In this document: one piece after another, positions 1 to 64,000 of the stretch
How the letters are laid out: the number at the start of each line of letters is the position of its first letter
Position numbering within the stretch: the first letter of the stretch is position 1
NCBI GenBank assembly: GCA_965178125.1
Contig: OZ237760.1
Location: 124,001 to 188,000, forward strand
Direction: 5' to 3'
DNA: 64,000 bases
Source of the DNA: Bilabrum cf. latius
Lineage: Eukaryota
The notes under the pieces: model-generated
The model's input: only the letters and a program-made list of their open reading frames with translations
What the model was told of the DNA's origin: nothing
The model's database searches: none
Made by a program: the position numbers and the translations under genes

Positions 1-3000
1 CCCCATTGCTCTGCATGCTAGCGCTACCATCCGATGCGAGCGCCTTGCGGCGAATCTGGTCGGCCTCCTGCCGCGCGACGTCCTGCATATGCTTGAAGAA
101 CTGCGACGAGCTTCCGTACTTGCTCGGCGCGCTCTCCAGGCTGCCGGCCGCATCCGACGCGCGGCCCGCGCCCTCCCCCCCGGCCTGTTGCTGCCCACCC
201 GCAGTAGTCCTCGCCCGCTTGCTCGGCCTCCCTCCTGCCCCCGCCACACCGGCTTCTCTGGCCATGGATGCCGCCGCGTGCGGGTTGCCCAGCCCCCCGC
301 TGGCCCTGCCTGCCGCCTCCTGCACCATGGCGTCCAGCTTCCTCTTCCTCCTCGCGACACGCTTCTTGGCGCGGCGATCCGCCTTCTTCTCCCCCGCAGA
401 CATCTCCTCCCGGGACCGAACCACACCCCGCACGGGCGCCGCCACCTCCTCCGGCGCTGCGGCACTCCCAATGGAGGCTGCCGCTGCCCCCATGCCCTTG
501 CCCTTGCGCCGAGTGCCGGCCGCCAGCCCCGCACCCCCGCCCACACCGGCCATGGCAGACGCCCCCGCGCCCACCGCCGCGGATGATCCGATCCCAGGAG
601 TGGCCTCCTCCAGCGCGACGGCCGCCACTCCTTGGGCCCTGGACCGAACGGACATCTCTGGGGCCCTTGCTCTGGGCGTGAACGCGAAGTTGGAAAGAGC
701 GTCCAGTCGGTGGAAGAGCTTCCCCATCAGCAGCCTGATCTCGTCCTCGAGCTGCCCGTGCCTGCCCCCTTTGCCCTCCCCATCGCCGTCCTCCCCTTCT
801 TCCCTCTCCTTTGCAGCCGCCCACTCGGCCTCGTACACCTCGGCCAGCCCCTGCCGCTTGCCCTCGTCCCGCCGAATCAGCTCCTCCGCCTCCGCGAGCT
901 CTTGTTCCCTGCGAGCCGCCTTGGCCGCCGCGTCCCTGGGCGCCTCATCCACGGGCACCGGATCGTCAAAGGCCCCGTCCATGATCCGCTGGCGAATGAG
1001 AGCCTCGAGCGCAGAGGTGCCGGTCCCGATCCCGTCCCTGCTCAACAGGGCTCCTTCACGCAGACCGCCTGAGCCTGACCCTGCCCCAGCTCCCTCGTCC
1101 CCATCGTCGCTGTCCTCGGCGAGACCAGCCCCAGGCGCGTCTCTGACCACCCTCTCGACGTCCACCACGGCCCCCAGCAAAGAGTCCTGGGGCCGCTGGG
1201 CTGCCCTCACCTCACCGGCGAGCTGCCACTCCCTCCCATGCCTCAGCTAGTGCGCCAGCTTGCTCTCCATCTCCTGGATCTCCTTCTGCTTTGCGCGCAT
1301 GCGCAGTTGGTGAGACGTGAGCCCATCCTCATCCTCATCCTCATCCTCGTCGTCCTCCTCCCCCCCGTCCATGCCTTCATCCCCAGCGGACATGCCCTTC
1401 TGCCGCCCACCCTCCTCATTCTCGTCATCGTCATCATCGTCGTCCGAAGAGGAAGATGCCTCGCCCAGCAGATCCACCTTGCTGCCCTCGATCCCCGCCA
1501 AACGACTTCCATGCTTACCGTCGTCCTCGCTATCGCTCTCGCTCTCACTATCGCTCTCACTATCGCTATCGCTATTACTATCACTGCCCCCCGCCCCATC
1601 GTCCTCATCGCCATCCTCGCTATCACTCCCGCTGCCCTCCTCCTCCTGCTGCTCCTGCAGGAACTCCTCATCGGGCTCGTAGTCCCCCTCGTCACCCAAC
1701 CCCTCGGCCTCCAGCTCCAGCATGCGGTCCAGAGCTGCCTCGGCCTCCTCGTCCTCTTCGTCCTCATCAACATCGGTACCGCCCTTGCTGGAGGTGGAGG
1801 ATGGCTTGCCCTGCTCACGGTCCCCAAAGAAATCGTCCTCGGCACGGGCTGCCCTCCGGATCGCCTCCAGCTTTTCCGCCGCGGTCATGGGTGCTGCCCC
1901 ACCACCCGATTGCTGCTGCTATTGTTCCTCCTCCTCTGGCTACCCGAGGGCAGCACCACCCCCATACAGCACGCGCTCCATCTCAATGTCCTCCTCGTCC
2001 TCTTCCTCATCATCCTCATCATCCTCATCATCGCCCCCCATCCCGGCATCCGACCCCCCCGCTCCAGCTCCGGGGATGCCGTCCTTCTCCTGCTCGTCCA
2101 GGAACCGCTCCATGTCCCTAAACCGGAAGTGCTCATCCTCGATGGCCCGGGCCTCCGGGATGTCCTCAGAGGCATCCGAGTCGTCGCCAGCCCCGCCCCC
2201 CATGCCCTTGTTCCCTGTCCCCTTCCCCTTCCCCTTGGCCCGCCTGCGTCTCCTCTTCCGCCCCGACTGCTGGCGCCCAGATTCACCGTCACCGTCCTCA
2301 TCCTCGTCGCTGGAATCGTCTGCCGCTTCTGCCCTGGCCAGAATCTTGGCCAGCCGGGGATCCGCGGCGGCCCTGGCCCGGAGAGCCGCATCTTCATCCT
2401 CGCTATCGTCATCGTCGTCCTCATCCTCTCTGTCCCGCCCGCGCCCGGCTGCATCGGAATCGGAACCGGAATCAGACTCGCTGTCGCTGCCGCTGTCGTC
2501 CGACATGGCGCCCTGGGCACCGCCCTCTCCTCGTGAACCGCGTGCGTTTGCCGGGGCATCGGTTCCCAGCTTGCTGATGAGGGCGTCCACCGCCTTCTCG
2601 ATGCGAGGCATGGCCGCGTCCGTGTTCATCTGCAGCTGGGCCCAGATGCCTTCCGCGTCGAAATTTTCGACTAGAAGCTCCCCAAGTGGAAGGACTGTGG
2701 CACCAATGATTCGCTGGGCCGGATCGTTCTGCGACCACGCATCGAGGCTATCCTGCCCTGCTGCGCCGTCCTTGAGCAGCACCTGCCCCTTGTCAGCAGC
2801 CAACTTGCAGGCTGCGACAACCGAAATGAAGAAATACAGCTACATTCAATGATAAAAGGACGAAATGACCGCGTTATGTACTGATGGCTGGGCTCAGCAC
2901 TTACATGAATCAAAGGCAACCTTAGTTGCAGATGCGGCTTCTTTGGCACACTCCTAGTTCGCTTCCGCAAATCTCTCCGGCGCATCTGCACACTTGCTAG

Positions 3001-3037
3001 CAAAGGAAAATAGCGCGGACAAGTCCAGCGAATCCAT
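1..3037 (-). CDS. MPP10: U3 snoRNP protein Mpp10, 3'-partial. Exons 3037-2905 and 2811-<1; in-frame TAG at 2954, 1940, 1919, 1247.
   Basis: Motifs LVENFDAEGIWAQLQ, WQLAGEVRAAQRPQDSLL, acidic tracts and C-terminal SSQFFKHMQD. The intron 2904-2812 (GTAAGT...GCAG) restores the frame. ORFs 1940-2803 and 1247-1888 are in the same frame and separated only by TAG. Confidence 0.9.
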
Positions 3038-3200
3038 GACGAGACCGGTCCGAATGAAGCTATTAAAGAAATTGCTGCAGCCAACACTGTGCACTCATCA
3101 CATGGGCAACGAAAATCGTCCAAGAGCAACTGCGACACTTCGACCGCGGTGCCTTGAGTGAGAACACCAAATATGAATTTATGCGTAGCAATAGGATGCA

Positions 3201-6200
3201 TCACACCCCAACACCCGCTCCAGACCAGGCCGCCATGGCCCTCACTGCTAGCCGCCGCACCTCTCGCCTGGGATCGTCCAGCGCCCGGCGCAGGCCCTCC
3301 TGCACCGGGGCTCGAACCTGGGACCTGCCCGCCGCCGGGAGCAGGCACATCCTGCCGAGGAGCAGCACAGCCCTCGCCCTCGCCGCGTCAGACACCGCCC
3401 CTTCCGCCGCAGCCGCGAGGGGCCCTGCCAGAGTGGTCGCAAGCTGCGCGGCGCCCGCCATGCCACCCCGGTTCCGCTCGAACACCCCGCCCCCCTCGCC
3501 CCCCTCTCCTCCCCCCGTGGCGCCCATCCTCGCGGCCAGCAGCCCCAGCGCGTGCAGCTGCAGAGCCCCCGCACCCTCCCTCGTCAGCCCGCCCAGCCCC
3601 TCTTCATCCACCTCCACCTCCACCTCCACCTCCTCGCTCCTCCCCTCGTGCCCTGCCCCATCCTCACCGACACGGCCCCGCGCGGCCTCAGCACCGGCCT
3701 GCCGCGCGCCGGGCCGTGTCCGCGGCCTCCTGCCCCGCCGGTCGCCCCTCCGTTCACTCGTCACACCGCGCCCGGTGAGCCCGGCTGCCTCGCAGGCCAG
3801 CACCAAGGCGCGCGCACCGAGCAGGAGCAGCGGGTCCTGCTGCTGGCCAGCCCTCGATTGCTTCTTGCTCTCGGCAGCGGGACCACCCGATGACTCCGAT
3901 CCGGGGGCAGCTAGCGCCGACTCCTCCACCACAACCAGCGGAACCTCCGCCGCGGCGCCGCAAACGGCCAGCATGCGCGCCCCGTCCGACCCCGCGCCCT
4001 CCCGACCCCCGCAAGCGCTGACCACCTGGGCGAACGTTCGCTGCTGCCATCCCCGGCGCACAACGCCTCCTGCAGCAGCTGACAGCAGGCCCTCGCCGCC
4101 GAACGAGGTTCCGTTAGCCGCCGCGGCGCCGCGCAATCCGACCCAATCGGCACGCGCCGGAGGCATGCTGCCGCATGCCGCGCCGGATCCAGCCGCAGAC
4201 ACGCCCCGCACCACGGCCGCGAGCGCCGCCGCCGCCTTGCACCTGAGGCCTGCACTCGTCACACCGCCAGACACGTCGTCCCCGAGGGGCCCCAGCAGCA
4301 CCGCAAGCGCCTCTCCGCTGGCCCTGGAGCCAGCCACCGCCAGCCCGCGGGCCACAGCTGCCGCCACCAGAACGGCCCTACCCGCCCTTCCGGGGTCCGC
4401 AGTCGCCGCTGGGCCGGCGAGGGCAGGCCGCACTTGTTCCTCCAAAACTCTCTTAGTGACCTCTGCACCCCCCCTGCGACCCTCACCGCCGGCTCGGTTG
4501 GCTGCGGCAGCCAGGCACCGCAGCAGGCACCCCACGGCGAGGCCCTGCCCCTGCCGCTGACCCTCCGAGTGCAGGATCCTACGCGCCAGTGCCTCCATCA
4601 CGCCGTCCATGGCGCCTTTCTCGGCCTTGCCCAGCACCGCCAGCGGAGCCACAATGGCCAGCTATGCCAGCTCATGCACCCCTCCCTCCTCCTTGCTCCC
4701 AGCACTCACCGTATCCCTGGCCCACCGCTGGAGGTCAGCTGCAGCGGCCAGCCCGCCGCACCTGGTCACAAGCACTCGCAGCACCGCAGCTGCATCCTCA
4801 GCCGCTCCCTTGCCCCCTTTGCGTTCCCCAGCAACACCAGCAGCAGCAGCGGCAGCAGCAGCAGCAGCAGTAGCAGCGCTCCGCAGCACCCCCCTTGCCC
4901 AGGCCACCGGGGAATCTGTGCTCCCCTCTAATGCCCCTGCATCAGCCCCCGCACCCGCATCAGCATCCATGCCGAGAACCCGCCCAAGTTCACCCCCTGC
5001 AGATGCCTCGTCATTCCCGGCTGCTGCCCCCGCGGCACCGATGGCAGAGCTGAGCAGCTTGCTAGCCAGCAAGCCCAGCTCATCCCCCCCAGCCCCTACC
5101 CCTGCCTCGGTGACTGCACGCACCAGTGCCCTACCAGCTGCACTCCGCACCACTGGGCTGCACCCCAGGTGAGCAAGCAAACTGGCCAGTCCCACGAGAC
5201 ACGCCGACCTCCCGCCACTCATCTGCCTCCGCGAGACTTCCACACCTTCCACACCTTGTTCCCCACCAGCGTCCTCCAGTCCCGCACCCACCCGCAGCAG
5301 CCGCACAACCTCCACCCCGGAGCTCTCGGTGGCACTCGCCAGTCGGACCACGGCCCGCAGCACCGCCGGCGCCACCGCCTCGGGCCCCGCATCCCCCTCC
5401 TCCTCACCCCCTTGCTTCCCGTCCGGTGCCGGCCGCCCCGCGGCCCCCGCCGCGCCGCACCCCGCCAGGACCCGCACCGCACTCGCCACACCGCCACTGG
5501 TGGCCGGCAGCAGACCCACGGCCAGTCGGAACGCGCTCCCCGCCGTCGGCTTGCTCACCAGAGCCTGCAGCCCCACAAGCGGGGGGCCCTCGCTGCCTGC
5601 AGCCGAGTCAGCGACGGACCCGCTCCCCGAGGCAGCGTGGGACGCAGCGGGTGTGGTCTCATCAGCCGGAACCGCTCCGTTTCCCTTGCCTGCCAGCCCC
5701 TGCGCCAGTGCAGCTAGCCGACTCGCCTGCCCCTCTGACCGCCAGCTCACCATGGCACCGGCCACCTCTCCCCACCCACGCACCAGCCGTCGAGCTGCAG
5801 CACCTGCACCTGCACCTGCACCTGCCCCCTCGGTTGCCTCCCGCCCCGCCGCAAGCACGGCAAGTCCACTGCCCTGCCTCTGCCCCGCCCGGCCAACCGC
5901 CCCGGCCAGCCGCAGCGCGGACGCCGCGTCCACGCAGCCCAGCGCGCCAGCCGCCCCCGCATCCACTGGCTGGCGACCCACCGCCGCAACGTGGGTCGCC
6001 AGCGCCGCCGCCACGTCACCGGTTGCAACTGCCGCCACGTCAGGGTCGCAGGCCAGCAGGACCTCGATGGCCGCTGCAGCCAGCCTCCCGTTTCTGCCCC
6101 TGGGATTGTCGGCCACCTCGGCCAGCGCCCAGCTGAGCACCTCTGCCACCACCTCGCGAAGCACGCGCACCATGCCCGTCCTCGGGCGAGGTCCGCTGCC

Positions 6201-8042
6201 GGACGACCCGGCGGCCGCGGCAGCACCCGCACCATCGTGCGATGCAGCCTCCGATTCCGCCCTTGCCGCCGCACCCACCGCCGCCCCCGTTTCCCCCAGC
6301 AGCAGCAGCACAGCACGGACCACCATCCCGGGCCCCACCTCCTCGGCTTTGGGTGGCACCCTCCCCGGGTCCAGCAGCCCCCCTGTTCCCTGGGTGCCCA
6401 CCAGCAGGGAGAGAGCGCCGTGCCCGCCCTCCTCGCAGAGAGCCCACCCGCCCGCACTCGCAGCCTGCGAGAGCCGCCGCTGCAGCAACCCACCGTTGCT
6501 GCCGCCGCCGCCCACGACTCGCAGAGCCTGCGCGATCGGCTGCCCCTGCTCCTCCTCCTCGTCTTCATTCCGCCAGCCGCTGGCTCCGTCAACAACCGCC
6601 GCCACGGCCAGACCAGCAGACGCAGCGGCAGCATCTCCGGCCGGCCATCCCGCGCACTGGCTCGCCAGCTTCTCAGCCCCAGGGCCCGTGCTCTGCGCCG
6701 CCGCGGCCGCCCCTTTGGCAGTCTGCTGCCCTGCCGCGGAAGCGGCAGAGGCCAGCAGCTTGCACACTGCCTCGGCCACGGAGGGCGCGTACTTTGCCAG
6801 CATCGGCCCGCGCATGCCGCGCACCACCATGGCGAGCGTCTCGGCCGCGTCCCACCTGGCGTTGTCCACGCTGGAAGTGAGCTTCTCCATGCAGAGGGGG
6901 GCCAGCAGGGAGTGCACCTGGGGCGTGTCCGAGGCCGTGAGCAGAGCCTTGAGCCGTGTGACGAGTGCGCCCCTGGTGAGGTGCTGGCTATCGGCCCCTG
7001 CCCTGCCCTTGGGCGGCGTGAATGAGATGGGGAAGTACACGCTCGTGATGTCGAAGAGGTCGCTCACGATGGGCGCCTCGTGCAGCAGGCTCGCGGTCAT
7101 GGGGGCTCCGGAGGGCGGGCCGGACCCGGAGGCATCGGCAGCAGCAGCAAGTACGGATGCAGGCGGCGAGGAGCAGAAGGAAGGATGCTCCAGCACCCTG
7201 CGCACCACCTCGAGACACACGAACAGGGCCCGGGGGTCCCTCTCGCCCTCGGCTGCCAGCACCACGCCGGCAGCAAAGGAGGCTGCCCTGCGTCGCTGCT
7301 GGGTCCTCGTGAGCTGAAAGAAGCGGTAAGGGTGCCCTGCAGGGGCAAGTGAGCCCCCGAGCGTGCTCAGAGAGTGTAGGTCGGCGCCCAGCGCGTGCTC
7401 TCTCTGCCGAGGGGAGGCGAGCACCGCCGCGAGAAAGCGGAAGGCGGCTGTCCGCAGGTGCACCGCGCAGGCCTGCACGTTCACGTGAACGAACAGGCTC
7501 TGCCAGGCGCGCACAAACGCTGGAACCTTGGCCGCGGCTCTGTCCTCCTTTGGGGACTCGCCGGCATCGTCACCGCCATCTGCAACTGCCTCGGCGTCCT
7601 GCAGCGCCGCGTCCACTCCGACGGCAGCATCGATTCCTTCCACTGGAGACACAGACACACCATTAAGTGCCTCCTCATGATGCTCTAGCAGCGCTGTGAA
7701 CGCGTCAAGGCACGCTGCAGAGGACGGCTGATCTGCAATTCGTTCGCACAAAAACAACAGGATCGCCTCTGCCGACTGGCTGTTCAAGCCGATCGATTCC
7801 GAGCTGGAAGCCCCACTGATAATTTCACAGACTAGTCGAATTGCCCTGCGCCGCCGATCGCTCGAGTCTGAAACGAGCTGCGCGCCCATGCCCCCGAGCA
7901 AGGTTGGAAGGGGTAGCGGATCAGGAATAGCGGCTCGCAGCGCTGCCAGGCCCGCCTGCGCGTCGGCGCTTGCTTTTGCATCGCTCTACTCTGCAGCTGG
8001 GTTGCAAAAAGCTGCGATATGGCTTCTTAGCTCATCATTCAT
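3201..8042 (-). CDS. MMS19: MMS19 (CIA targeting complex / Fe-S assembly HEAT-repeat scaffold), ~1613 aa; TAG at 7986 and 4662; TGA stop
   Basis: GERDPRAL, DLFDITSVYFPISFTPP, LCMEKLTSS and C-terminal ALDDPRREVRRLAVRAMAAW are MMS19 signatures. One frame runs from ATG 8042 to TGA 3201 if TAG is sense. Confidence 0.88.
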
Positions 8043-8212
8043 ACCGTCAATTATGCGACCGGAAGCGGCCACGTGCCGGCGACGTCAACTCGCGACGGCG
8101 TGATGACGAGCGCGAGGAACCTCTGGCGGTGTTGTTGTGTGCATGCATGGTGTGGTAGGCGCTTGGCATACAGTCATAATCCTTGTTTGGGGCTCAATAT
8201 GGCTCTTACACA

Positions 8213-9988
8213 TCACGCAACGATCCGCAGCGGCGTCAGCGGGTCCTCCTCGTCCTCGTCCCCACTGCCCGTGCCTACAACGCCCAGCTTGCCTGGTCTT
8301 GCTGCCGCAGTCCCCTTGCGTCTCCTTCTCGCCTGCTACCTGCCTCTGCTTCCAGCGCGCGCCCTACCAGCACCCGGGCCGTCAGCGACCAGCTCATCCC
8401 CCCGTGAAGCGCCCTCCCCTGCCCCCTACGGACTGCCACCTGCACGCTGCTTCTTCTTCTTCTTCGTGTGCTTCTTTATCTTTCCGTTGGTCCTGATTCT
8501 CAATCCATCGGTGGATCCATCTGCTCCAGCCTCTATCCTGCCATTCTCATCATCATCCTCATCATCATCATTGCCCTCCTCCTCCTCTGCATCATCCTCG
8601 TTCAAATCCTCATCCTCAGCGCCACTTTCACCATCGGATCGATCCCCATCCCCATCCTCCTCCCCTTTTCCATCCTCCACGGGCGGCATCTCCCCCGCCA
8701 GCGGCTCGCTGACAATCAGCTCCGGGCGGGCCCTGAACCTGCCCCTGTACCCCTCGTACAGCCCCTGCAGCAGGGAGCAGTAGGCCCCGTGCCACGCATC
8801 CACGTCCTCCTGCGAGGGCTCCTCCAGCCGGGGCAGAGACAGGGGAGGACCCACCACCGTGCGCAAGGGGTGCCTGTGCGGGAGCAGCCCGCAGGAGTAC
8901 TGCATCACGCCCCGGCCGTAGAAGAGAGGGGCCGTCCAACCGAGCGTGCCCCCGATGGCCTCCTGCACGGCCCGCAGGAGGGACCCCCTCGGGTTGGGCA
9001 CCTGGCGGAAGACCTCGTTCTCGCCGAAGGTTACTACCGGTACCAGCGCCGCGCCATGCCTGAGGGCGTGCTTGACGAAACCCTTCCTCCTCTTGAGGGT
9101 CAGGTCGAACCGCATGGGGTGCGCGTCCAGGGCCTCTTTGGCCCCTCCCACCACCACTCCCACGCTCAGGCCTTGCCGCAGGCACGACTGCATGCTGCGC
9201 TTGGAGGCGTCAACGAATCCAAGGCCCATGATGAAGTCTCTCAGCAACGGTAGGACGAAGTGGATCGTCACCGTGAGCACGCGCAGAGAGTCGCCCAGCC
9301 CCAGGGCCTCCCTCTGCCCGTCTGCATCCATGACGATGTTTGACAGCACGCCAACGCCGATGATGCCGTGTGGGTGGCAGGCGAGCACGTGGGGGCGGGA
9401 GGGGTCCAGCCTGCGCACCACGTGGAGCGAGGAGGGAAAGTACCGCCGAAAGTGCTTCCACACGGGCAGCCGCTGCACTGCCCTCAGCGGCCTGCCGCCC
9501 CGCAGGTGCCTGTCCCTGTCGAACAGCAGCTGCCAGGCCAAATACGCGGGGAACAAGTACTTGAGATATAAGTAGTCGGGAAGCACGCCCAAGTACAAGA
9601 AGAGCATGTACCAATAAAAAGTAAAAGCCGTGGGCATAACAAGAAGCGCGAATATCACGCCAGCAGTCTGCAGCCGCCGTTCGATCGGCGTGTCCATGGG
9701 GGCGCACCGCATGCAGCACCATCTGCACTTCTAGCTAGTATCTGCGCCAGCTCCCGCTCGAGCAGTGCGTTTCAAGAGCTCGCGGCGGTGGTGCGAGTGC
9801 GGCAGGTCTCTATCGCCGACCTGGCATTCAAACTGAGGTGCAACACCTCGATGCAGCAAGTCCAGGGTCGCCGGGTCTTGCTTTTTAATTAAAGTCTCGA
9901 ATGAAAGATCGTCCTGTTCTGTTGAATCTTGCTTCTTTTCCTTTGTCGAGGCGCTCTTCGCCCCTCCATCGGCGGTTCGTTTTGCCAT
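8213..9988 (-). CDS. Diacylglycerol/monoacylglycerol acyltransferase (DGAT2/MOGAT family), ~591 aa; TAG at 9731, 8426, 8336; TGA stop
   Basis: Motifs RRLQT, YFP, HPHG, GGAKEAL, RKGFVKHALRHGAALVPVVTFGENE and VVGPP. Read-through ends in PLRIVA-TGA, resembling the family C-terminus. The start at ATG 9988 is inferred. Confidence 0.88.
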
Positions 9989-10227
9989 AGCGGGCTTCGA
10001 TCGTCGACCCTCACTGGCCAAGCGAGCTTCTTCGGAAGCCTCAAGCACAGACTATCGCAGACCGATAGTATTAACAAATGTTCACTGCAATATTTAGGCC
10101 CGAAACCATCAATGATAGCGCTGTATGAGCCTGAAACAGTAATACAGATTCACGCATTTTGTTGCGTGTACCGACCAACGATGGCATCATTCCTGCCACG
10201 GTCGCGTAGACAATCCGTCTTGGTGCG
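9989..10227. promoter_or_regulatory. Probable bidirectional promoter region (DGAT2-like / RPN3)
   Basis: A ~240 bp lower-GC gap between divergent start codons. No specific motif identified. Confidence 0.45.
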
Positions 10228-12157
10228 ATGCCTGGCTCATCATCGGACAAGCAAGCCGCATCCGGTGCTGGAGCAAATGATGTTACTAAGGCTAATACCA
10301 AGGGAGGCAAGGCGGAGCCGAAGCTGCCCCCCCTAGGCACGACAGAACGTGAGCGATCCAGCCATTCGAAGAGCGAGCACACCTGAATTGCAATCTACCG
10401 CGCCACTCATCGAGCCATCTCACATTCTATTCACAGTATTGGAGCGTTACTTGAAGTTAGTTCATAGGTCTGTGGTCATGAGGGATAGACGACCCATGGC
10501 TAGGGCGATGCGGTACGCAGTCAGAATTCGCCGGTTTGCGCACTAGGCTGCCCTGGATTCCGCTGTAGGGGAGCATTGCGCAGGAACTGTGTTCGATACC
10601 GCTGCCCGAGCGGCCCTCGAGGATGCAAAGCCACTCATCCCAGAGGATGTGGCCGCAGCAGCCAAGCAAGCCGATAAGGAGGCGGCCGAATTGAAGGCCG
10701 AATAGGAGGCAGCCTTGAAGGCGAAGGCAAAGAGAGAGGCGGACGAAAAGAAGAAGGAAGAGCAGAAAGAGAAGGAGGAGAAGGCTCGCGCAGAGGGGAA
10801 GGGCAAGTTTGGAGCGGCCTCCGGTTCCGCCGGCCAAGCTTCCATGACGGACGACGAGGATGCCGAAGAATCCAAGGAAAGCGGCGAAGATGAGGCCAAG
10901 GAATCGAAAAAGAAGGGACCCTTCACGGATGCGTCCAAGCCAGAACGCGCCGCCTACGTGCTCTACCTGCTGGCGGCGATGTGCTCGCAGGGCGGCGAGC
11001 ACGAGGCAGCTGCTCGGCACGCCGACAGCCTGCTCGCCTCTGCCCTCGAGGCCAACCGCCGGTCGCTGGACCATTTGCAGGCGCGCGCCCTGCAGCTGCA
11101 CGCCGCCAGCACTGAGAAGAGCAGCCCGGCAGCCGCGCGCGCCCTGCGGCCCCGGCACATGCACGTGTACCGCACTGCAGCGCTCAGGCACGACAGCACG
11201 ACACAGGCCACCGCCGCCGTGCTCGTCCTGCGGTCCATGGTGCTCGGCAGGGAGCTGCAGCTGGCAGGCAGCTTCATGTCGCTGGCCACCGTGCCCGCTG
11301 ATGCCAGCAACGCACAGGCGGTCCGGTGGAACTACTTCAAGGGAAGGGTGGAGGCGGCCCGGCTGGACTACTCGGACGCTCTGCGGTCCTTCTAGCTGGC
11401 GCTGAGGAGGGCGCCCACGGGCGTGGCGGGAGGCTTCAAGCGCTCGTGCCAGCAGCACATCGCTGTGGTCACGCTGCTCACCGGCACCGTCCCCGACAGG
11501 GACACCTTCCGGAGGCTCCAGGGAACAGAGGGCAGGGACGACGCCACGGAGCAGGCCATGGGTCCCTACTTGGCCGTGGCACGAAGCGTGCGGGTGGGCG
11601 ACCTGGCCGCGTTCGGGGAGGCTCTGGACCTGCACGGGGCCCGGCTCCGGAGGGACGGGACACTCGCCCTTGTGAGGAGGCTCCGGGAGTCTGTGATCCA
11701 GACGGGGCTGCAGGCCATCGCAAAGGCGTACTCGGTGCTGAGCTTCGAGGACGTGGCGGGCAAGCTGCGGCTGCCCTCCGCCGAGGAGGCCGAGTACGTG
11801 TGCGCGCGCGCTGTGCGTGACGGCGTTGTGGAGGCGGTGCTTGACCACGAGTAGGGTGTGATGGCATCCCGGGAGAGGACGGACAGGTACTCTTCGATGG
11901 AGCCGCGTGTGGCCTTCAAGAGGCGCCTGGCCTTCTGCCTGGAGGTGCGGCGGGAGGCGCTGGAGGGTCTCGAGTATCCCGACGGTGCGTTCAAGAGGGA
12001 CGAGGGGGACGAGCAGGCGAGGAAGAGGAGGGACATGGAGGAGAGCGCGCTGGCGGCGGCGCTGGAGGAGGAGGACGATGATCCGGAGGGGGGAGAGCCG
12101 GGCATGGACGATGACCCGGACATGGACGATGACTTTGGGGGAGGCGACGGGCTGTGA
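10228..12157 (+). CDS. PSMD3: 26S proteasome lid subunit RPN3/PSMD3. Exons 10228-10348 and 10437-12157; TAG at 10544, 10703, 11393, 11852; TGA stop.
   Basis: RTAALRHD, ASNAQAVRWNYFKGRVEAARLDYSDA, PCI domain (LRESVIQTGL...YSVLSFEDVAGKL...AEYVCARAVRDGVVEA) and YSSMEPRVAFKRRLAFCL. The 88-bp GTGAGC...ACAG intron restores the frame. Confidence 0.92.
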
Positions 12158-15344: not shown

Positions 15345-16089
15345 AGCTTCGCACCGGGAGCGGCAGACCTGTGTGCACATGGTCAAGCAGTCCTAGTGAC
15401 GCTTGCTTCCTGTTCCGGGAGCGTGTCCGATGAGATCGCCTGATGCATATAGCATGATACTGTTCATGGACGCGGCGGTCGGTGCAAGACTTTGTCGCGG
15501 TCCTTGGCAGCAACACAGCGTGCAGTTGCAGTTGGGCTCGTGGGCAAACCAAGCTCTATTCAATGGGAGCCTACTTGTATGCTGAGCGCTGTATGCTAGT
15601 TTTTGCAAGTTACATTTTTTGATTTGTACATCTACGCCACACACATTCACGAAAGTGAAGCAAGAAATGACACGCACCTGCTGGCCGAGAAGCCCATGAG
15701 AGCACTTCGATTGACCTCACTGTGCTGCTGCTAGCTAGTAGTGGCACCGGTGTACTACACCCATACCCCTTTGGCGCTCCACTGTGTATCTGTACACCAG
15801 GTGATCGTTGTTGCCAAACTCAGCTTGCATCGATTTGGCCACGATGCCAGTGAGAGCCCGGCAACGCTCCAACGCAACCGTCCTTTCCAGGCTTCAACTA
15901 GCTGCCGACCGATACTATGTATATCTCCTCCCACACCCAGGGCCCGCATCGTGCATCTCTGCAAGTGGCACACCGCAAGTGGCACACCGGGATCACATGC
16001 TTGCTGTGCAAGCTGCGACGATGAGATACGCAGCCGGCAGGCTGCCCCACACTTCCACATACCATTTCTGTACCACTTACACCGACAGA

Positions 16090-16910: not shown

Positions 16911-17093
16911 GACGACTTTCAGGGACCACTGGTCAGATTATGGTTTCAGGCGCCCGTCACCTCGCGACGTGCTTGAACCAGGTGTGTGACGACGAGCGGC
17001 GCTGCTGGCCCAGACTGCGGGGAAACATATCAGACCATGCATTCGAATCACAAAGCCATCATCAGGAGCCCCAGCACTAACAGGAACCGATGG

Positions 17094-48287: not shown

Positions 48288-48483
48288 GTGCCCCGATCCG
48301 TTGATCAATCCATGGAATGAATCATTCTAAACGAGTCGTGTTTGGTAATGCTGGCCAATCGAGCCACCCCCGTGGATCCGGTTCCGAATCACGCTTTCCA
48401 CGTGAACAAGCACATACGTAGAGAATCCCACGCAAACTATCCAGGCAAGGAATTTTTATTTAGTTTCTTACTCCAGAAGCGAC

Positions 48484-52992: not shown

Positions 52993-55900
52993 ATGTCGAA
53001 ACAGCCAACGGTCACGATCAATGTTTAGATTGTTCCGACAAGTGATATTGTGTCGTGTGAAGTAGCCGAGTCGTCCAAAATGATAGAGGTGCTTGATTCG
53101 ATCCGCAAGTGAGTTTGGGATGGGATGGAAACGTACGTGCGCGCAAGCCTGACCATGCACGAGCTTGAACTGATGTTCCAGCATGTTTGTGTATGCCGAC
53201 ATCTTGCAGACAGTACAAAGAGCGCCCGGGTTTCAAGGCGCTAGGCCTGTCGCAGGCGGTGGCCGAATCTGTAAAAATTCGAGGACTCTTCACTTCACGG
53301 GGTCAAAGCGTTTCGGTCGAGAAGTCGATCAAGGAAACGTTTCCAGATGGAAAGTATGAACTGAAGTGCATCCTCAGTGGAATCGAGAGCGGTGAATCCG
53401 AGGGTGGGAACGCCGGGAAAGCTTCTGAAGGCTCGGGAACGGGGACCGGGGAAAAAGGTCTTGTTCGGCTCCCAGGTGCAATGCGCTTGGAAGAGCCCGT
53501 CGACATAAGCCCTGAAAGTCTGGAGGAAATTCCTGGCTTTGCGGCCGGGAGCCACACGGTAGCCTACATCATGCAGCCTTCAATGCGCGCCATTCGACTC
53601 GCTGTGAATCCATTTCGAACGACTTTGCGGGGTCTGAAGCGGGCGATTGCCTCTGTTGAGTCTATTGATGCTGCTGACTTGTCTGATCCGCTCCATGTCG
53701 TCAAGAGGGATGCACGCCGCTCGCAGTCGTTCGAAGGGCAGCTGCTGCCAGAGGGCTCGCACGCCGCGCCGCCCACTGCCTCGACGTCTAACGCTCCAGT
53801 GGTACCACTTGAAGAAGACGAAGAAGAAGAAGAAGAAGTCGTAGACGGAGAAGAAGAAGGGGATCCTACCAAAGCCCCAAAGAAGAAAACCGACGCGAAG
53901 GCCCCTTTGCCGGCGGACGAGGCTCTCGTCACGATCGAGCTGGCGGGGCGCTGGGCCCCCCTCCTCCCCTCTGGTGACGCGACCGGTGGCGGACGAGGTG
54001 GAGACGGGCCCAACCAGACGGGCGACTCAGACCCAGGCACGGCCGGTGGAGAGGAGGACCCGGGATCGGAAGGCGCCCAGGACGCCGGCTCGCGCCCCCA
54101 TCCACTGCACGCCGAAGACCTCACCCTGGACCGCTGGGGGTTCCTCGACCCGGGGGCACTGCTGGACCCGCCGGTTGCGACCTCTCAGCACAGGGCCACC
54201 ACGGTGGAAAGCGAAGGACCCGCCACGGGGGCGGGCGGGCCGGACCTGGAGTCGCTCGGCGACGGGAGCGCACGCTCCAGCACGCTGCACGTCACACTGT
54301 GCGCCCATTCCGGCGGCGTGTCCAGCCTGGCGGGAGGAGCCGACCACATGGATAACCTGAAGGTCAGCGCGGCGTGGCAGCCGGCCATCGGTGGGGCCCT
54401 CGTGGATCCGCCCAAGGGCTGGCCCAGGCTCTCCCGGATTCCCGCCCCTGTCTGCCTTGGAGACGCTGCTGCCGCTAGCGAGGCCAGTGGGGCGGCTGCC
54501 GCCGGCGAGCCCGCCATGTACCACGCCCGGCCGTTCCTTGAGCAGCCCGTGGAGTCTGCGTGCGATTTGATCAGGACGCAGTCGCAGAAAGGCCTCTCCG
54601 AGCTCCTGTCCTGCCTCTACGTCGCATCGCACTGCATCACGTCGACCACAACCAAGCGCAGCATGGTGGCGCAGGTCAGACGGCTCAGCGGCTCCCCCCA
54701 CGCAGCCCACGCGCTGCGGCTGCTTTTGGCAAAGCGAGCCATGGCTCCCGCGGATAAAGCGGCCCTGAGCACTGCACTGTACTGCATGCTCCGGTCTGCG
54801 CTGCCGCAGTCGATCAAGCCAGACGAGGTGTTCCAGAACGCCCGGCTGGCCATGGGCATGCTTCTGCTGCGAGGAGGAATGATGCGAGTCCCGGCCCCGT
54901 TCGAAGGACAGGCGGCCTGGCTGCAGATGGACCCTCTAGTCGTGAGCTACCTGCCCACCGACTGCACCGACGGAGCAGGGGCGTACAAGAACGTGAGTCT
55001 CCAGTGCGACCTGTCCGCTGCTCGCCTCAAGGACCCTGTGCTTGTGGGGCATGCCTTGCATGAGGACGAGGACGAAGAGGGGGCGGAAGGTCCAGTAGGG
55101 CTGGCAGCAGCAGCAGCAGCACCAGAATCACCGGCCACCCGCAGCGAAGGGGAACAGCCAGCCGGCTCCCTCTCACCAGAGGTGCTGGCCGTGCACAAGA
55201 ACAAGGTCTACTCGCGTAAGGCGGCCCTGGCACGCATCCCAAAGACTCTGGGCGGTACCCTGGAAGACGCCGACAAGGTCACTGCAGGCTGGCAGGGAGT
55301 CACTGCAGCGAACCTTCTGACAGACCACCGCAGGCTGGTGCTGCTGCGGGCCTGTCCGCACGGTACCGCTGCTCCAGTGTGGGCGCCCGTCCCGCTGGTC
55401 TCGGCCAGTCCGGAGATGGCAGCTAAGGTACAGCTCGGAGCAGATGACCGGACGGACGGCGTCGGTCTGCACGGTGATGCGACGGAGGCTACTCCTGCTC
55501 CTGGGGGCGAAGACCGACCATCTGACGCAGACGCAACCGCGGCCGGTGCCAGCGACGATCCCATGCCCAGCGAGCACAAGGTTGTGGGGGAGGCGACGAG
55601 GGACAGGTACCGGCCCTCCCTCGTGGGCACAGCCCGGGGACCTGCCCCGCTGTACCTTGCGATCTCCAGGGGTGGCTCCATCAAGAGGCTGGCTCAGCAG
55701 CTGGGTGATCTGCCTCGTAAGGCACCTGGCATGGCCATCGTGCATCCCAGCGCCCTGGGCTCGGTGCACGACGCGCAGCTGACTCTGGACGAGAGCGGGA
55801 GGGTGGTGGTGTTCACCCGACGGGCCAAATCCGCTACCGCTTCCACCATGCTGTACGATCCAGTGCTGGGGGATGAGCGAGCCGTGGACAAGGACACCGT

Positions 55901-58900
55901 AGCAGAAAAGCTGCAGGAGATGGGCATCGACGGCGCCAGCACGCTGGACAATCTTGACGTCCAGGACAGGGAGCCCGAGGAAGCCGTGGTCTTGTGCGTG
56001 GACACGAGCTAGTCCATGTGGAGGTACTGCTTTCCAGACCCGGGCGAGTTCGACCAGGACCGGTTCAGGCAGGACCTAAAGGCTGTGTACGTGCGGGCGC
56101 TGTCGAGACCGGATGCTACGGGCGCCGTGGCCCGCCAATTCGCGCTGGATCGAGTCGAGCACTATTACCCCGGGGCTGAGCTGGACGAGGGAGACACGCA
56201 GCGGCTTGTTGGCCGGCTGTCCATGACTGCCATCCTTCCGCTGCTTCGGCGCATCTACGCCGGGGGACTCTCGGGCCCGGCCATGCGGGAGACGTAGCGA
56301 CTTTTCGTGGTGGAAGAGCTCGCTGAAATACTGATGGACGCCAAGGAGTGTTCTGCGCAGGTCATCAGCCGCGCGAGGAGGAGGCTCCAGCTGCAGTGCG
56401 CTGCAAGCGCCGCGCAGCTGGTGGACGTGCTGGAGGCCGGCCCAAGCGAAGAGGACGACGAAGAGGAGGCGGGCGCTGCAGGTGCCGGCAGCGCGGCCGC
56501 AGGGGAGCCCGTGTCAGGCGTGCCGCCCGGGCCGCCTTCGGCTGCGAGCCGCGCAAGAGCCGACCCCAACGGGTGGATGCTCACAGATCCGGGAACCGTA
56601 GGAGAGGGAGCCCCCGAGGAACTGCGGTGCCCGCTGACGGGGAGGCTGTTCCGAGACCCCGTGCGGGTCCACTCTGGCCAGGTGTTTGAGCGACAGGCTC
56701 TCCGGAAGTTCCTTGCTCGCGACGACCGCTCTTTCTGCAGCGCTCCGCAGTGCCTCCTTGACATGGTAGAGAAGGGGTATGGCCTGACCGAAGAAGAGCT
56801 CAAGCTCTCTGCAGACGCCGAGAAGCTGCGAGCAGTGCGGAGATGGCTGCAGGAGCACCCCTCGGGCATCGTCAGTGAGAACGACGCGGAGAGGGCGACC
56901 GGGGCGGGTGGTGGCGACTCCATTTCGAGGGCTCCATTTAGGAGAACGCGAGGGCACTGGTTCGTCTCAAGGGTGCTTGAAGACCGCCGGAGCCAGATCG
57001 CCCATGTCAACACGGTTCCGGTGATGCTGCACAGCAATATGACTGAGCGAGCTGCCTGTCTATCCATCTGGCAGCAGAGGGGGTATTAGGAAGACTTTCG
57101 GCCAACCGTGTCCTCTCTGTGGCACAACAAGAGACGCACCGGCGATGGTTTTTCCACGGGATCTACCCTTGGAGGGGGTGATTCTTCATCGCTCCGCCAC
57201 ATGCTGCAGAGTATTGGGATCGCTTATACAACACCGCGCTGGCATCATGGCCCGCAGCGGTGGCCTAGCGCGTTCGAGGATGAGGAGCTGCGCCTGACAC
57301 CGCGATTCTTTGGATTACCCAACCCCATCACAAGTTAGGGCCTGTCGGAGGAGGAGATAGAGGAGAGGGCCGGGCAGGGGGTGGTTCTGCCACCAGCCAT
57401 CCTGGAGCCCCTGCCTCGGTTCGTGGACCAATCCAAGAACCCGGATCGCATGTCTCGCATCCTCACAGTCAAACAGCTCTTTGGGGCGTACCTCGACCGC
57501 ACGCGAGCCTTTGATCTGCCGCAGGAGATCGGCCTGGTGACGTTCAGCGACAGCCCCAAGATGCAGTGCGCCATCACGCCGGCCTTCGAGCGGTTCCGCA
57601 GCGAGCTGGAGGAGATGGAGCAGGACGGTGAGACAGCCATGGTGGACGCGATCGACCTCTCGCGAAAGACTTTGATGTCGTGGCGAGACCGCGTGCTTCG
57701 GAGAAGGCTGGACAAAGGCGTGGTGGGGTTGCGCCCGCCTCGACTGCGGATCGTGTGCCTTTCCGACGGCGTGGACACGTCCTCCTCGAGCGAGCCGCAA
57801 GAGGTGGCCACCGCTCTTCGGGCCGAAGGCATCGTGCTGGACGGCGTAGTGGTGGGTGAAAACACGAACGAAAACCTGCATCAGATGGCCAAGTTCACCG
57901 AGGGCTACTCCTTCCACCCCTCTACCATCTTCGATGCGCTGCAGCTGTGCGAGCTGGAGACTTTCCTCTCCTGCGGAAATCGGCCCAAGCCCCCGCCCCC
58001 GGACCGCGCCATGTCAGGCAGGCGCGATCTCACCCGCCTCGATGCCTACAACTCGGCGCAGTGTCCCCTGGATGTGTGCGCGGGAGGACGAGTGCCAGAG
58101 GCCAGAGCGGATCCCAGGGCCAGCGCGTAGGCTCATAGCCTGGAAGTGGCCATCAAGGCGCTGGAGCAGAAGGAGGAAGAGGCAAAGAGCAGCGGGGGCA
58201 AGCCCGATGGAGCTGCTGAGGATGCCTCGCCTGCCCAGGGGGAGACGGACCCGGCCGCTTCAACGCCCACGGCGGAGGAGGAGCTGGCAGCCATGGAACA
58301 AGCTGGTGCAGTGGGCAGCACAAGCTCGAGCCCCGCCAAACCCTCTGCCGCGGCCTCCAGCGAGGACGCCGCACCTGCTGCTCGGGCCCGTCGAGACCCA
58401 GCGAGCATCGCTGAGATTATCAAGCAGCTCAGGGTGCTGCACCGGTCCCCGCATCCCGCCTTCAAGGTGTATCCCAACGCGGACGACGTCACCTACTGGC
58501 GCGCCACGATGCGAGGACCAGACGACACGCCGTACCAGGGCGGAGTGTGGGTGCTGCAGGTGGACTTCCCGCCGGGGTACCCAGACGCCGCACCAAAGGT
58601 GCGGTTTCTGACGCCCATGCGACACATCAACGTGTCAATCTAGGGCAGGGTGTGCCACGCCATCCTGGACCGTGCGTGGTCTCCAGAGGTACAGATGCGC
58701 GACGTGTTTGACCAGATCTACGGTCTGATGATGACCCCCGAGCTTGACGATCCCTTGGACTCGAACCTAGCCAGCATGCTGCAGAACTCCGACGGGCGCG
58801 GCGTGTATGACGTCACCGTGCGGAACTTCGTGGAGGCGCATGCCATGCGGCGGACTGAGGAAGAGTGGGGAGAGAGACTGACGAGGGAGAGGCCAGCGAG

Positions 58901-59888
58901 CGGCGGGCGGGCGCACTGGGACGATGACGGCGATGAGGACGATGAGGACGATGGGGCGGCAGCTGGAGGGGGTGATGGCGATGGCGGTGGCGATGGGTTT
59001 GCCACCGTAGCCGTTCTGGCGGGCACTGGAGATCTGCTGGACCAGCGGGCGCAGCGCGTTGCACTCGACGACCCAGCTCTTGCGGACCGGGTGCAGGCAT
59101 CCACGCTTATGGGGGATGCCGGCCGAAGCGCCCGCCAGGCCCTTGTGGTTGCACATGCAGCTGATCGCATGCGGGATGAGAGCGCTGAAGTATTCCACAG
59201 CGACGAACCCAGCCCTGCCATGGCCGAGGCCATGAAGCTGACAGGGGAAGGTGAAGTGCTCGAGCGACGCGCCATGGCAGCATTCATGCGCGCGTCCGTC
59301 GAAATCAACATGCTGGCTGCATCTATGGGGGATAACCCCGCCATGCGCTCGCGGCTGCAGCGGCTCAAGGTGGAGATCGTGCTGAAACAGGCCATCCGGC
59401 ACCACCAGGAAGAATCAGAGGAAGCGGGAGAGGGAGAGGGCGATGGCAGCGATGGCAGTGACAACGATAGCCAAGCTAGCGAAGAGCCCGGTGCCAGTGG
59501 CGAGAACCAGGACGATGACCAGGACGAGTCTGCTGGTGGTGGTGATGGCAGCAGCGGAGCCGAGCGCCCGCCGGACTATCCAACCGCAGCCGAACTCGCA
59601 GGGACTGGGGATCTGCTTCACAGGCGGGTCGAGGCGATCACAGCAGTGGACCCTGAAGCCCGCCGCGTGCTTGCATTGCAGTAGATCCTCGGGTCACCGG
59701 AGAGCGTGGAGCTATTGATGCAGCGGATCGTGCTCGTCACTGCGATCAGGCAGATAGAGGAAGGCGATGGGGGAGCAAGTGGCGGCAGAGGAGGGAATGA
59801 TGGTGGCGGTGGCGGGGATACTGGTGGAGGCAACAACTCGGAGGGCAACGGCGACGATGACGGAGAGGTGCCCTGCAGGCCCTCGTAA
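52993..59888 (+). CDS. Multidomain ubiquitin-system protein: putative N-terminal Ubl, vWA, U-box and UBC (E2) domains, ~2264 aa. Exons 52993-53108 and 53210-59888; 8 TAGs; TAA stop.
   Basis: vWA MIDAS VVLCVDTS(Q)SM (~55986), with the rest of the vWA (IGLVTFS, GETAMVDAI, RIVCLSDGVDTSS) at ~57450-57950. U-box PEELRCPLTGRLFRDPV..SGQVFERQAL (~56610). UBC W...GPDDTPYQGG...FPPGYP...RHINVSI(Q)GRVCHAILDRAWSP (~58420-58850). The 101-bp GTGAGT...GCAG intron is in phase. Confidence 0.85.
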
Positions 59889-60779: not shown

Positions 60780-60921
60780 ACGATGGAAATACAGGCGTAT
60801 TGGGCCGCAAGTTGGTATGCAAAATCAAGCTCGCCCAGCTTCCGATGCATCGAAGCTTGGTTTTGGTTCCACGACTTGTATATACCGATAAACTTACTTG
60901 CTAGCTCATTCGATTCTGCAA

Positions 60922-63900
60922 TCACAAGTGCTCGCTGCTGACGGCCGGCTGCCCCTCGCTACCTCCGGATGCTGCCCCCACGCCAGCCCTCCCTCTCGAC
61001 TCAACGGCAGCGTACAGCGCATCGCCCAGCGCGGCTCGAGCCGCTGCCCCTGTCTCGGGCCCGCTCAGCGCCCGCAGAACAGCCATCCTGGCCTCGGCCA
61101 GAGCCAGACTGGGCAGGGGCACCGGTGCAAGGAGGGCTTCCACGAGCCCTGGGGCTCCAGAGGCGATGGCCAGCTGGCCCCATCCGGTCGCTCTCGGGTC
61201 GGGTTCCCCAGGCGACGATACCGTCGATTGCTCGTTGCTGTCTGTTTGTGCCGGCTGCGCTGCAAGCGCCAGCAACAGGTCGTAGCCGGCCAGCTTGTGG
61301 GCCTCCTCTGGATGCGGCAGCAAGACGTTGTGCGCGAGCGCGGGCAGCGTGGACGTCTGGCCAGCCCTACGGGTCCCATGGTTATCGTGCACCCAGGCCG
61401 TGTACTCCTCCGCTAGCGTCTCAGCCAATGACCGAGGCGGTGCCCCCCTCGGAGCGGTGGATCGCCACTCTTTGCGAGCCTCAGGGGACAGGTCGTCCTC
61501 CCCTCGCTTCCGGCCCGAGGGGAGTCGGCCCCCGCGCCAGCCGCAGTGGATGCCCCAGAACGCACCAGCGAGCATCATGCGGCCGACCAGCTGCGCGCTC
61601 GGCATAATGACCGCGCCGGATGCTCCGGTAGACCTCGCCGAGAGCACGATGATGGCATCGCATGCCGCGCTCTCCTCCGAGCTGCAGGCGAACCCCTGCA
61701 GCTCGAGGAGACTTGCCACCGCCTAGCTAGACGGAGCCAGAGGTGATGATGATGATTGCGCTGCCCCCGCGCTTGTTCTATCCCCTTCTCCCCCCTCCAC
61801 TGCTTCGTCACCGTCACCGTCACCGTCACCGTCACCGTCACCGTCACCGTCACCGTCACCATCATCCATCGCCTTGCTCTCGGTGGCACCTGCCCCAGTG
61901 GCGGCTGCGCGGCCCGAGCTGGCAGCGACCGTCGCACCAGTGGCACGGGCAGCCTCTTCATCGCGGGAGCTGGACACCAGCGCATCCCTCTCTGCCAGCA
62001 GCGCCGTCTGCCTCGTGCTGAGCCCCGCCTCTGCGTCCCCCTTCCTGACACCAGTCAGCGCCACGGACGATGGCGCGGGTGCCGCATCGGTGTCCTGCGG
62101 CGCGTCGGACGTCCCATGGTCCAGCGCCCCCGCACCGGCCTGCAGCACCGCAGCTAGTTGCATCCCAGCCGATTTGGCCAGGACAAGGCCGCGCGATTGT
62201 GCCGCTGCTGCGCCCGCCACATCGCCCCCCTCGCGCAGCAGCTTGGAGCTGGCGGCCATTGCCAGCACAGCATCGGCGCCGGCACGCGCGGGCGGTTCCG
62301 GTACCGCCGATGCTCTTAGCACCCGCGCCAGGCAGCGCGCTGCCGTCTGCCTGAGGTCCGGCTCGGTTCCCGTGGCTGCCTCTGCCACCGCCCCGAGGAG
62401 CCTGGGGAACTTGCGGAGGGCCACTTGGAGGCACCCCGGGTCCTGAGCCATCAGGGAGCAGGCGGCGCCCACCAGCTGTGAGGTGTCCTCTGATGACATC
62501 GAGGCGGATGAGGCGGCGAGGGAGGCCGTGGCTCGAAGCAGAACGGGGACGGCCACTGCTCGCCTGGATAGGGTCACCATATGGGCGGCCTGCGCTATAT
62601 GCGAGTCGCCGCCTGCTGGCGACACTGACTCGCTGCCGGAGGCCCTGACGAGTGCTTCCTCCCCTGCTAGGTGCAGCAGCGACTGCACAACCGTGCAGTG
62701 CACCTTAGAAAGCACCGCAGCGCACTGCACCCCGAGGAACCCGTCGGGATCGCCGAGCCCACCCGCCAGGCCGGGCGTGTCACCGTCTAACTGCCTCATC
62801 TGCTCAACAGATACATGCAGCGCGCCCCGCACGGCGGTTCTCTGCCCTGCACCCAGCTGCCGCAGCATGGACCACTCGGGCAGTGGACCCTCTCCCTCCC
62901 GATTAGCGGGCACAGTGCCGGTCACCGGCCCGAGCGCCATCCCGGCGGCACCCGCCACAGCCCTCAGGCACTTGAGTCCACCCTACCCCTACCCCCCCTC
63001 TTCTCCTTCTCCTTCTACCTTTCCAGTGCTCACTTCGCTCCCCTCCTCCGAGAACAGCACCCGCGCCCCCTCCACAGAGGAAGCGAGAGCGGGCAGGCAG
63101 CCCAGCGCGTTCATTGCCAGGAGCGGGTCACCAAGGGAGCTGTGGCAGAGGGTGAGGAGGGCCCCCGTGGCACCGCTGGCCCGCGCCAGGGAACAAGCCA
63201 GGGGGCACCCTGCCAGGAGGGTTGCGACCAAGTGCGCCCCTCGGACCTGCAGCGAGGACGGGTCATCACCGTCCCCGTCCTCCATCGGAGTGCTGCTGCC
63301 TTGCGCATCATTGCCGGCTGCGCCAGAGCCTGTGCCCGATGGGCCCGAGCCCGGTCCAAATGAGCCGCGAGTCGATATCCCGCAGGCTTGCATGATGGCA
63401 GCGAGAAGGCCACATGCTGCCTTGCTCGCCTTGCTGCCCGCTCGAGCACTTGCTCCGTGCACCAGGAGAGCGAGCGAGAGCGATTCGGCCAAGGCAGCCT
63501 CTACCAGATCCTACCCCGCGAGCGACCGACATAAAGAAGACTGCAGAACGGCAAAGACTGCCTGGAATTCCGATGCATGGGGCTTTGCAGGACCTGCTGC
63601 CAAATTTCCGGCGGGCGCGCTCGTGCTGTCGCTTCCACCCCACAGCGCAGCTGCAGCCGCAGCCGACGCGACGAGCCCAAACCCGGACTCTTTGGAACGC
63701 TGCGCCACGCAGACCTGACGGGCACGCCGAATGATCACGGCGGCTTGGGGCTTGCCGGAATTCGAATCGGCTGCACCGGCACACGAAGCAGCGTAGGCCT
63801 CTCGGTCGTCGCGCCTGCTGGGAGCAAGACACGGCAGGGGACATGTCGGCGGCGCAAGCAAGCGGATCAGTGCCCTCATTGAGGCCATTCTGACCTCGCG

Positions 63901-64000
63901 TTCTATGCTCGCGACACCCGATCTGACTGTGCTCGTTGCGAGCTCGGCTGCGTGGCTTGCGCTTGGATCGACTGCTCCTGCCGCTGAGGCAGCGCTATCG
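60922..64000 (-). CDS. Large Ala/Leu-rich helical (ARM/HEAT-like) hypothetical protein, 5'-partial; TAG at 63511, 62989, 62983, 61723; TGA stop
   Basis: ORFs 63511-63888, 62989-63492, 61723-62958 and 60922-61719 share one frame, are joined by TAG and stay open to the window edge. Amphipathic helical segments are present but no family is recognised. Confidence 0.7.
61807..61860. repeat. (GTCACC)9 hexanucleotide microsatellite encoding a (Gly-Asp)n tract on the minus strand
   Basis: Perfect tandem repeat read directly; in frame within the 60922-64000 CDS. Confidence 0.95.

Follow-up and report, generated by a model that had tools for sequence, protein, structure and literature searches.

Genes and in-frame TAG codons in the window

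The DNA analysed here is a 64-kb stretch of contig OZ237760.1 from Bilabrum cf. latius (positions 124,001 to 188,000; hereafter the window, with all coordinates counted from its first nucleotide). It is GC-rich (58–71 % GC per 4 kb) and carries at least 13 genes on both strands, identified from Pfam matches and, in the case of a transporter, also from the names of its matches. Nearly all of these genes are traversed by in-frame TAG triplets. We consider it very probable that UAG is a sense codon for glutamine (Gln) in this genome, with UGA as the usual and UAA as the rarer terminator, i.e. the assignments of NCBI table 15.

The left part of the window encodes conserved eukaryotic proteins, in frames that end at TGA unless stated otherwise. 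The MPP10 frame (2–2845, minus strand; Pfam Mpp10, E value 5e-54) runs off the window start and contains TAG triplets starting at 1942, 1921 and 1249, with a further one at 2842 adjoining its first ATG; the TAG at 1921 sits within a Glu/Gln run. MMS19 (3201–8084, minus strand, 1,627 codons; Pfam MMS19_N, E value 1e-29) has TAGs at 7988 and 4664, and a DGAT2-type acyltransferase (8213–10081, minus strand; Pfam DAGAT, E value 1e-75) has TAGs at 9733, 8428 and 8338, as well as one at 10054 that lies upstream of the first ATG. RPN3/PSMD3 (10219–12157, plus strand; Pfam TPR_PSMD3_N, PCI and Rpn3_C; PDB PSMD3, E value 4e-70) is interrupted by an intron at 10349–10436 (GT..AG) and contains TAGs at 10544, 10703, 11393 and 11852. 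A sugar porter resembling proton myo-inositol cotransporters (12445–14526, plus strand; Pfam Sugar_tr, E value 2e-87) carries TAGs at 12907, in an ITGG-x motif, at 13567 and at 14224, in a PWTI-x-SE context. MIP18/CIAO2B (15638–17000, minus strand), recognized by its spliced translation (PDB galla-2), possesses three introns (16441–16539, 16605–16698 and 16766–16859) and a single TAG (16557–16555), while IFT57 (17094–18554, minus strand; Pfam IFT57, whole profile, E value 2e-79; PDB Chlamydomonas IFT57) has TAGs at 18422, 18338 and 18182. The four introns in RPN3 and MIP18 measure 88–99 bp, have GT..AG ends and are documented by spliced contigs.

The remainder of the window contains longer frames. 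A low-complexity frame without a Pfam family (19619–23473, plus strand, 1,284 codons, TGA end) includes eight TAGs, two of which (22916 and 22925) sit within a Gln-rich run. Glutamate dehydrogenase (GDH; 23773–25206, minus strand, TGA end; Pfam ELFV_dehydrog) has no TAG and served as the query for relatives. It is followed by a giant frame with two class III cyclase domains (26265–48287, plus strand, 7,340 codons, TGA end; 46 TAGs), a 1,492-codon frame with a pectate-lyase-like stretch (48406–52884, plus strand, TGA end; 11 TAGs), a 2,239-codon frame with U-box, VWA and E2 (UQ_con) domains (53169–59888, plus strand; seven TAGs), which is the sole frame to end at TAA, and a low-complexity 1,025-codon frame that is open at the window end and terminates at TGA (60922–63999, minus strand; four TAGs).

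For the frame statistics, we took frames from stop to stop with TAG as sense, cut only at TGA or TAA, which gave 12 long frames comprising 19,019 codons. The longest open frame measures 1,107 codons under the standard code and 7,340 codons when TAG is read as sense (the next in length being 2,239, 1,627, 1,492 and 1,284 codons), compared with 1,107 codons when TAA is read as sense and 1,420 codons when TGA is. There are 97 in-frame TAGs across the 12 frames and the spliced MIP18 adds one, for a total of 98, in agreement with the figure of about 100 given in a preliminary description of this DNA. The positions highlighted in that description also hold, namely the ITGG-TAG at 12907, the TAGs in IFT57 (18182) and MIP18 (16557–16555) and those in Gln runs at 1921, 22916/22925 and 30969. 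The rate is 5.1 TAGs per 1,000 codons and applies to nearly all genes. Of the 97, about three fall upstream of the probable start codon or belong to the frame of a different exon (10054, 10334 and, in the 26265 frame, codon 27), leaving ~94–95 within coding sequence, and 12 of the 13 genes are affected, GDH being the exception.

When these stretches are read in their two off-frames, TAG occurs 104 and 117 times (vs 97 in frame), TAA 34 and 58 times and TGA 259 and 301 times, the latter two both being zero in frame. TAG is therefore about equally frequent on and off frame while TAA and TGA are abundant only off frame, indicating that only TAG behaves like a sense codon. The Pfam domains of MPP10, MMS19, DGAT2, RPN3, the sugar transporter, IFT57, the cyclase and the E2/U-box/VWA protein all lie in frames that TAG would break. 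In the 50 codons preceding a TAG, GC at codon positions 1/2/3 is 0.66/0.57/0.68 (92 sites), and in the 50 codons that follow it is 0.67/0.55/0.71 (95 sites), but it drops to 0.55/0.49/0.53 past 11 TGA/TAA ends; on average, the coding signature persists beyond the TAGs. The tandem repeats of the window displayed no copy-to-copy CAG/TAG variation.

As for the terminators of the 12 frames, 10 are TGA and one is TAA, and one frame runs off the window; with MIP18 included, TGA ends 11 of 12 genes. No in-frame TAA was found vs ~21 expected if TAA:CAA (134 CAA) matched TAG:CAG (97:619). In L001, a 5,254-bp metagenome contig with 55 % GC that carries a related GDH gene, the GDH stop is TAA, where the window GDH has TGA at the same position. 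UGA is kept as a stop and so, judged from 64 kb, is UAA.

TAG in transcripts and in close relatives

We compared the window with four sequencing runs: a large DNA run (X4) and three runs from two other studies with other organism labels (X5, X6 and X7), whose RNA nature is taken solely from their spliced contigs. X4 (depth ~80–150) agrees with the first 20 kb of the window with no listed differences. In contigs of X5–X7, the intron of RPN3 and all three of MIP18 are spliced out, and none of these joints is present in X4. The spliced contigs have no other letters at the four RPN3 TAGs and the MIP18 TAG; hence, the expectation that UAG is kept in mRNA is borne out at these five sites, and unspliced X5–X7 contigs contain nine more unchanged TAGs, in MPP10, DGAT2, the transporter and IFT57. 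The unchanged TAGs in the spliced contigs argue against editing or assembly error. The spliced RPN3 contig stops ~100 nucleotides beyond the TGA.

The residue at UAG is best addressed with close relatives. L001 encodes a GDH that is 82.5 % identical to that of the window at the nucleotide level, and it retains the head-to-head order of GDH and giant cyclase (window 23773–28200, GC ~64 %) despite the large shift in composition. Its cyclase frame has seven in-frame TAGs in 659 codons, which is denser than the shared part of the window. The alignment of the two cyclases comprises 602 positions, 375 of them identical. Four well-aligned sites have TAG in one sequence but not in the other, and the counterpart is a Gln codon at each of them, CAG at three and CAA at one: a window TAG faces an L001 CAG once, a window CAG faces an L001 TAG twice and a window CAA faces an L001 TAG once. 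A further conserved-context site is TAG in both sequences, and a second TAG/TAG pair falls in a poorly aligned stretch. As TAG exchanges with CAG and CAA in both directions and some TAGs are shared, TAG behaves as a synonymous Gln codon; the code change is thus common to at least one diverged relative (L001) and is older than the split between the two lineages.

For the transporter, a full HMMER scan yielded 150 representatives, which we aligned. The ITGG-x column holds Q in 103 of the 132 sequences that aligned with at least four identities in the flanking 12 positions (I in 22, E in two, M in two and A, L and H in one each). The nearest fragments, P0127 (88 % identical) and P0137 (76 % identical), possess Q at both conserved TAG sites in identical contexts; together with L001, conserved-context sites in close relatives are Q at six of six. 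P0127 ends exactly at the position of the third TAG of the window transporter, as would be expected of the product of a standard-code gene caller if this relative has TAG there too. That public protein collections hold the transporter of relatives as separate fragments (P0127 and P0137) can itself be seen as a sign of systematic standard-code truncation.

Gln codons across the frames comprise 97 TAG, 619 CAG and 134 CAA, TAG contributing ~11 %. We also trained a neighbour-composition classifier on the window's own proteins and applied it to 96 TAG sites, which placed Q first among 20 residues and E outside the top 8. Q is enriched 1.69-fold beside TAG, against a self-enrichment of Gln of 1.78.

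Taken together, the claim of the preliminary description that UAG is sense and specifies Gln, with UAA and UGA as stops and without frameshifts, is supported by the frame statistics, by TAG remaining unchanged in spliced transcripts and by TAG facing CAG or CAA in close relatives, the latter being the main grounds on which the residue is read as Gln.

Alternative readings and comparison with published codes

Several observations weigh against this interpretation. In distant homologues of solved structure, the TAG columns correspond to A, F and V for IFT57 (Chlamydomonas), E and E for MIP18 (fly galla-2 and human FAM96A), N, N, L, N and L for the E2 domain (five alignments shown) and T and K for RPN3 (mammalian PSMD3). 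The earlier statement that TAG falls where Gln is expected is therefore confirmed for the ITGG-x motif of the transporter but, judged from these homologues, not for IFT57 or MIP18. These distant columns are mostly variable and represented by few sequences and would neither contradict nor establish Gln; word-index homologue searches, which returned two matches for IFT57 and one for RPN3, were swamped by alanine-rich low-complexity words and proved unusable for column counts. The PWTI-x-SE column of the transporter (121 sequences) is mainly N (67), with Q in 13 and other residues in 41. In the window/L001 alignment, TAG is paired with R, V, G and G at four sites, each within low-complexity sequence that aligns poorly, and the lead of Q in the classifier is small, at 4.0 log units over M. 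The absence of internal TAA and TGA is true by construction of the frames, although these frames nonetheless span whole homologous genes, and contigs lose rare variants, such that a minor edited fraction is possible. Finally, neither a tRNA (ARAGORN) nor an Rfam match was detected within the window, and likewise none in L001 or in L003, a contig with a more distant GDH, and eRF1 is not among the genes of the 64-kb window.

Of the other readings considered, a dual role for UAG, sense within genes yet a stop close to the 3′ end of some mRNAs, in the manner of the context-dependent codes of Condylostoma and karyorelict ciliates, is unlikely. As the frames were cut only at TGA or TAA, a gene truly ending at TAG would be read through unseen, and the DGAT2 frame does extend ~170 codons past its Pfam domain into a long acidic tail with the TAGs 8428 and 8338. 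However, TAG is absent from the 12 terminators, sequence downstream of TAGs on average still looks coding and the RPN3 contig ends ~100 nucleotides past its TGA. The DGAT2 acidic tail is the one place in the window where a TAG stop could hide. UAG could also be sense but specify another residue, for instance Glu, Lys or Leu, a situation described for some ciliates and one rhizarian. The distant homologues would allow this, since the MIP18 column is E and other columns show K, T, N, A, F and V, but the six of six Q sites in close relatives, the preponderance of Q over E (103 vs 2 of 132) at ITGG-x, the TAGs within Gln runs and the ranking of the classifier leave it very improbable.

We likewise see little prospect for UAG and UAA both encoding Gln (UAR = Gln), with UAA too rare to notice at high GC. 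Of the three trinucleotides, TAA is indeed the least common across the window (142 occurrences, vs 365 of TAG and 614 of TGA), and the sample is only 64 kb; however, the ~21 in-frame TAAs expected from the CAA:CAG ratio are missing, reading TAA as sense leaves the longest frames no longer, TAA ends the 53169–59888 frame, composition falls after stops (an average over 11 TGA/TAA ends) and TAA occupies the GDH stop position of L001. Next to no credence attaches to the idea that the TAGs are not translated as such but are assembly errors, pseudogene lesions or mRNA sites edited to CAG. We found no support for it beyond the room that contigs leave for a minor edited fraction, and it is countered by the DNA run and the three spliced-contig runs, which match the window with no differences, by the presence of 98 TAGs without any other stop in 13 genes, some of them essential, and by a diverged relative with in-frame TAGs of its own, partly at other positions. 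Pyrrolysine-type recoding, in which UAG is rare and confined to a few genes, does not fit a rate of 5.1 TAGs per 1,000 codons spread over almost every gene, nor the CAG/CAA exchange; Pyl genes were not searched for.

If UAG is read as Gln, decoding would most likely involve a tRNA-Gln of its own whose CUA anticodon can read UAG but is unable to read UAA, and an eRF1 whose recognition of UAG is most likely lost or weakened. This route is proposed by analogy with those in Panek et al. 2017 (PMC5304391) and McGowan et al. 2024 (PMC11687900).

The code itself is already known. UAG-only Gln is reported for the fornicate Iotanema spirale, which has UAG as Gln and UAA and UGA as stops with UAA primary (PMC5304391), and for the ciliate Protocruzia tuzeti and two phyllopharyngean ciliates, Hartmannula sinica and Trochilia petrani (PMC11687900). 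The window shares with I. spirale the same three assignments and the same predicted route, tRNA-Gln(CUA) plus an altered eRF1; the eRF1 of I. spirale carries T32G in the GTS motif (PMC5304391). As far as published descriptions allow comparison, I. spirale is an anaerobic endobiotic fornicate in which UAA predominates, whereas UGA ends 11 of 12 genes in the window, GC is 58–71 % and the window GDH is nearer to those of aerobic flagellates such as Cafeteria. The UAG-only ciliates are similar in that UAG alone has become Gln and in-frame UAG occurs in most genes, but UAA is given as the preferred stop for the phyllopharyngeans (PMC11687900), unlike the main UGA, long GC-rich genes and 88–99-bp GT..AG introns of the window, whose gene architecture is in our judgement unlike that of a ciliate. 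The dominance of UGA as terminator is the feature that sets the window apart from the published cases.

Related codes differ in other respects. UAR = Gln (table 6 type) is described for many ciliates, Hexamita, oxymonads, ulvophyte algae and Amoeboaphelidium protococcarum; there too a stop has changed to Gln and TAG is used beside CAG and CAA, but these codes read TAA as Gln, whereas in the window TAA is never in frame and terminates one gene, as it does the GDH of L001. Reassignment of UAG alone to other residues is described for the rhizarian exLh and TARA ciliate metagenome-assembled genomes (Leu) and for Scotinosphaera (Ser), and the ciliate PL0344 is given as UAG = Glu and UAA = Lys; these resemble the window in the uncoupling of UAG from UAA but not in the residue, which here is Gln. 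The crAss-like and Lak phages that are described as using code 15 (TAG = Gln) have genomes recoded against a standard-code host, unlike the spliced eukaryotic nuclear genome represented by the window.

Lineage, novelty and minor observations

The best named match of the window GDH is Cafeteria roenbergensis (68 %). In the GDH tree, the window and L001 group together (100/100) as sister to three environmental sequences (99/93), and this group forms a polytomy with the Cafeteria clade, a clade of L003 and a transcriptome entry (TSA) and a clade containing a cryptophyte, while opisthokont and amoebozoan GDHs fall outside. A specific kinship with Cafeteria, seen in an earlier FastTree analysis with support of 87, was lost in this more careful tree. 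The names of the transporter matches (Trichinella, Malassezia and Penaeus) provided no lineage signal, and the presence of IFT57 implies a flagellate. An aphelid placement, considered on the idea that aphelids are a UAG = Gln lineage, was rejected: published accounts of Amoeboaphelidium assign TAA as well as TAG to Gln, and the window GDH lies apart from those of opisthokonts.

L003, whose GDH is 66 % identical, has three genes that together comprise 1,527 codons and lack in-frame TAG altogether, where ~8 would be expected at the rate of the window, and its TauE-like frame (2559–4589, minus strand) terminates at TAG, beyond which lies a cysteine-rich tail that does not look coding. On this small sample of sequence, the data suggest that the lineage of L003 uses the standard code and that the code change stops short of it. 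In more distant GDH relatives, TAG seems to have remained a stop, and the switch would thereby be bracketed.

The preliminary description also held that the organism does not resemble the known UAG-only lineages, and our data agree, with a GC content of 58–71 %, UGA as the usual stop rather than the UAA given for Iotanema and the phyllopharyngeans, and a GDH that does not fall with opisthokonts. Searches of open PMC full text and bioRxiv, a coverage outside which most subscription journals lie, revealed no earlier account of this code for any GC-rich or stramenopile-like lineage. That the case is undescribed is taken solely from this negative search; the runs date from 2025, and a description may exist or be in preparation. 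We assign slightly less than an even chance to an independent, unreported origin of UAG-only Gln among aerobic, GC-rich flagellates that are neither ciliates nor fornicates, in a clade to which at least two diverged lineages (64 and 55 % GC) would belong. The lineage, rather than the code, would be new if unreported.

Nuclear code changes are few and those in which UAG and UAA differ in meaning fewer, and a further lineage with another base composition and another preferred stop would test how UAG escapes its coupling to UAA. If the independent origin is real, it would be the first UAG-only Gln case with UGA as the retained preferred stop and would bear on the idea that a fixed UAA stop frees UAG to drift. 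The code also has practical consequences, as standard-code gene callers shorten the proteins of this lineage; the 7,340-codon cyclase gene would fall into dozens of pieces.

A number of features of the window are of interest in their own right. The giant cyclase is an uninterrupted 22-kb frame with its cyclase domains near either end and ~5,000 residues of S/G/R/A-rich low complexity between them, and L001 conserves its N-terminal part, which includes transmembrane-like stretches as well as the first of the two cyclase domains. The 53169–59888 frame joins a U-box, VWA domain(s) and a ubiquitin-conjugating E2 core in one 2,239-codon protein, with a MIDAS-like D-x-S-x-S at codon 948 in which TAG is the second x. 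GDH, with no TAG in 477 codons, has a GC3 (GC at third codon positions) of 0.88; of the stretches measured, only the DGAT2 domain is higher (0.89). Its lack of TAG is compatible with avoidance of TAG in highly expressed genes but is not significant, as 2.4 TAGs would be expected at the window rate.

Lastly, the summed contig depth of X4 reaches ~7,900 at 1335–2001 and ~570 at 8005–8671, vs ~90–150 elsewhere. These spikes overlie acidic GAG/GAC-rich low-complexity coding stretches and most likely arise because similar repeats in many genes cross-map there, rather than from a change in copy number.

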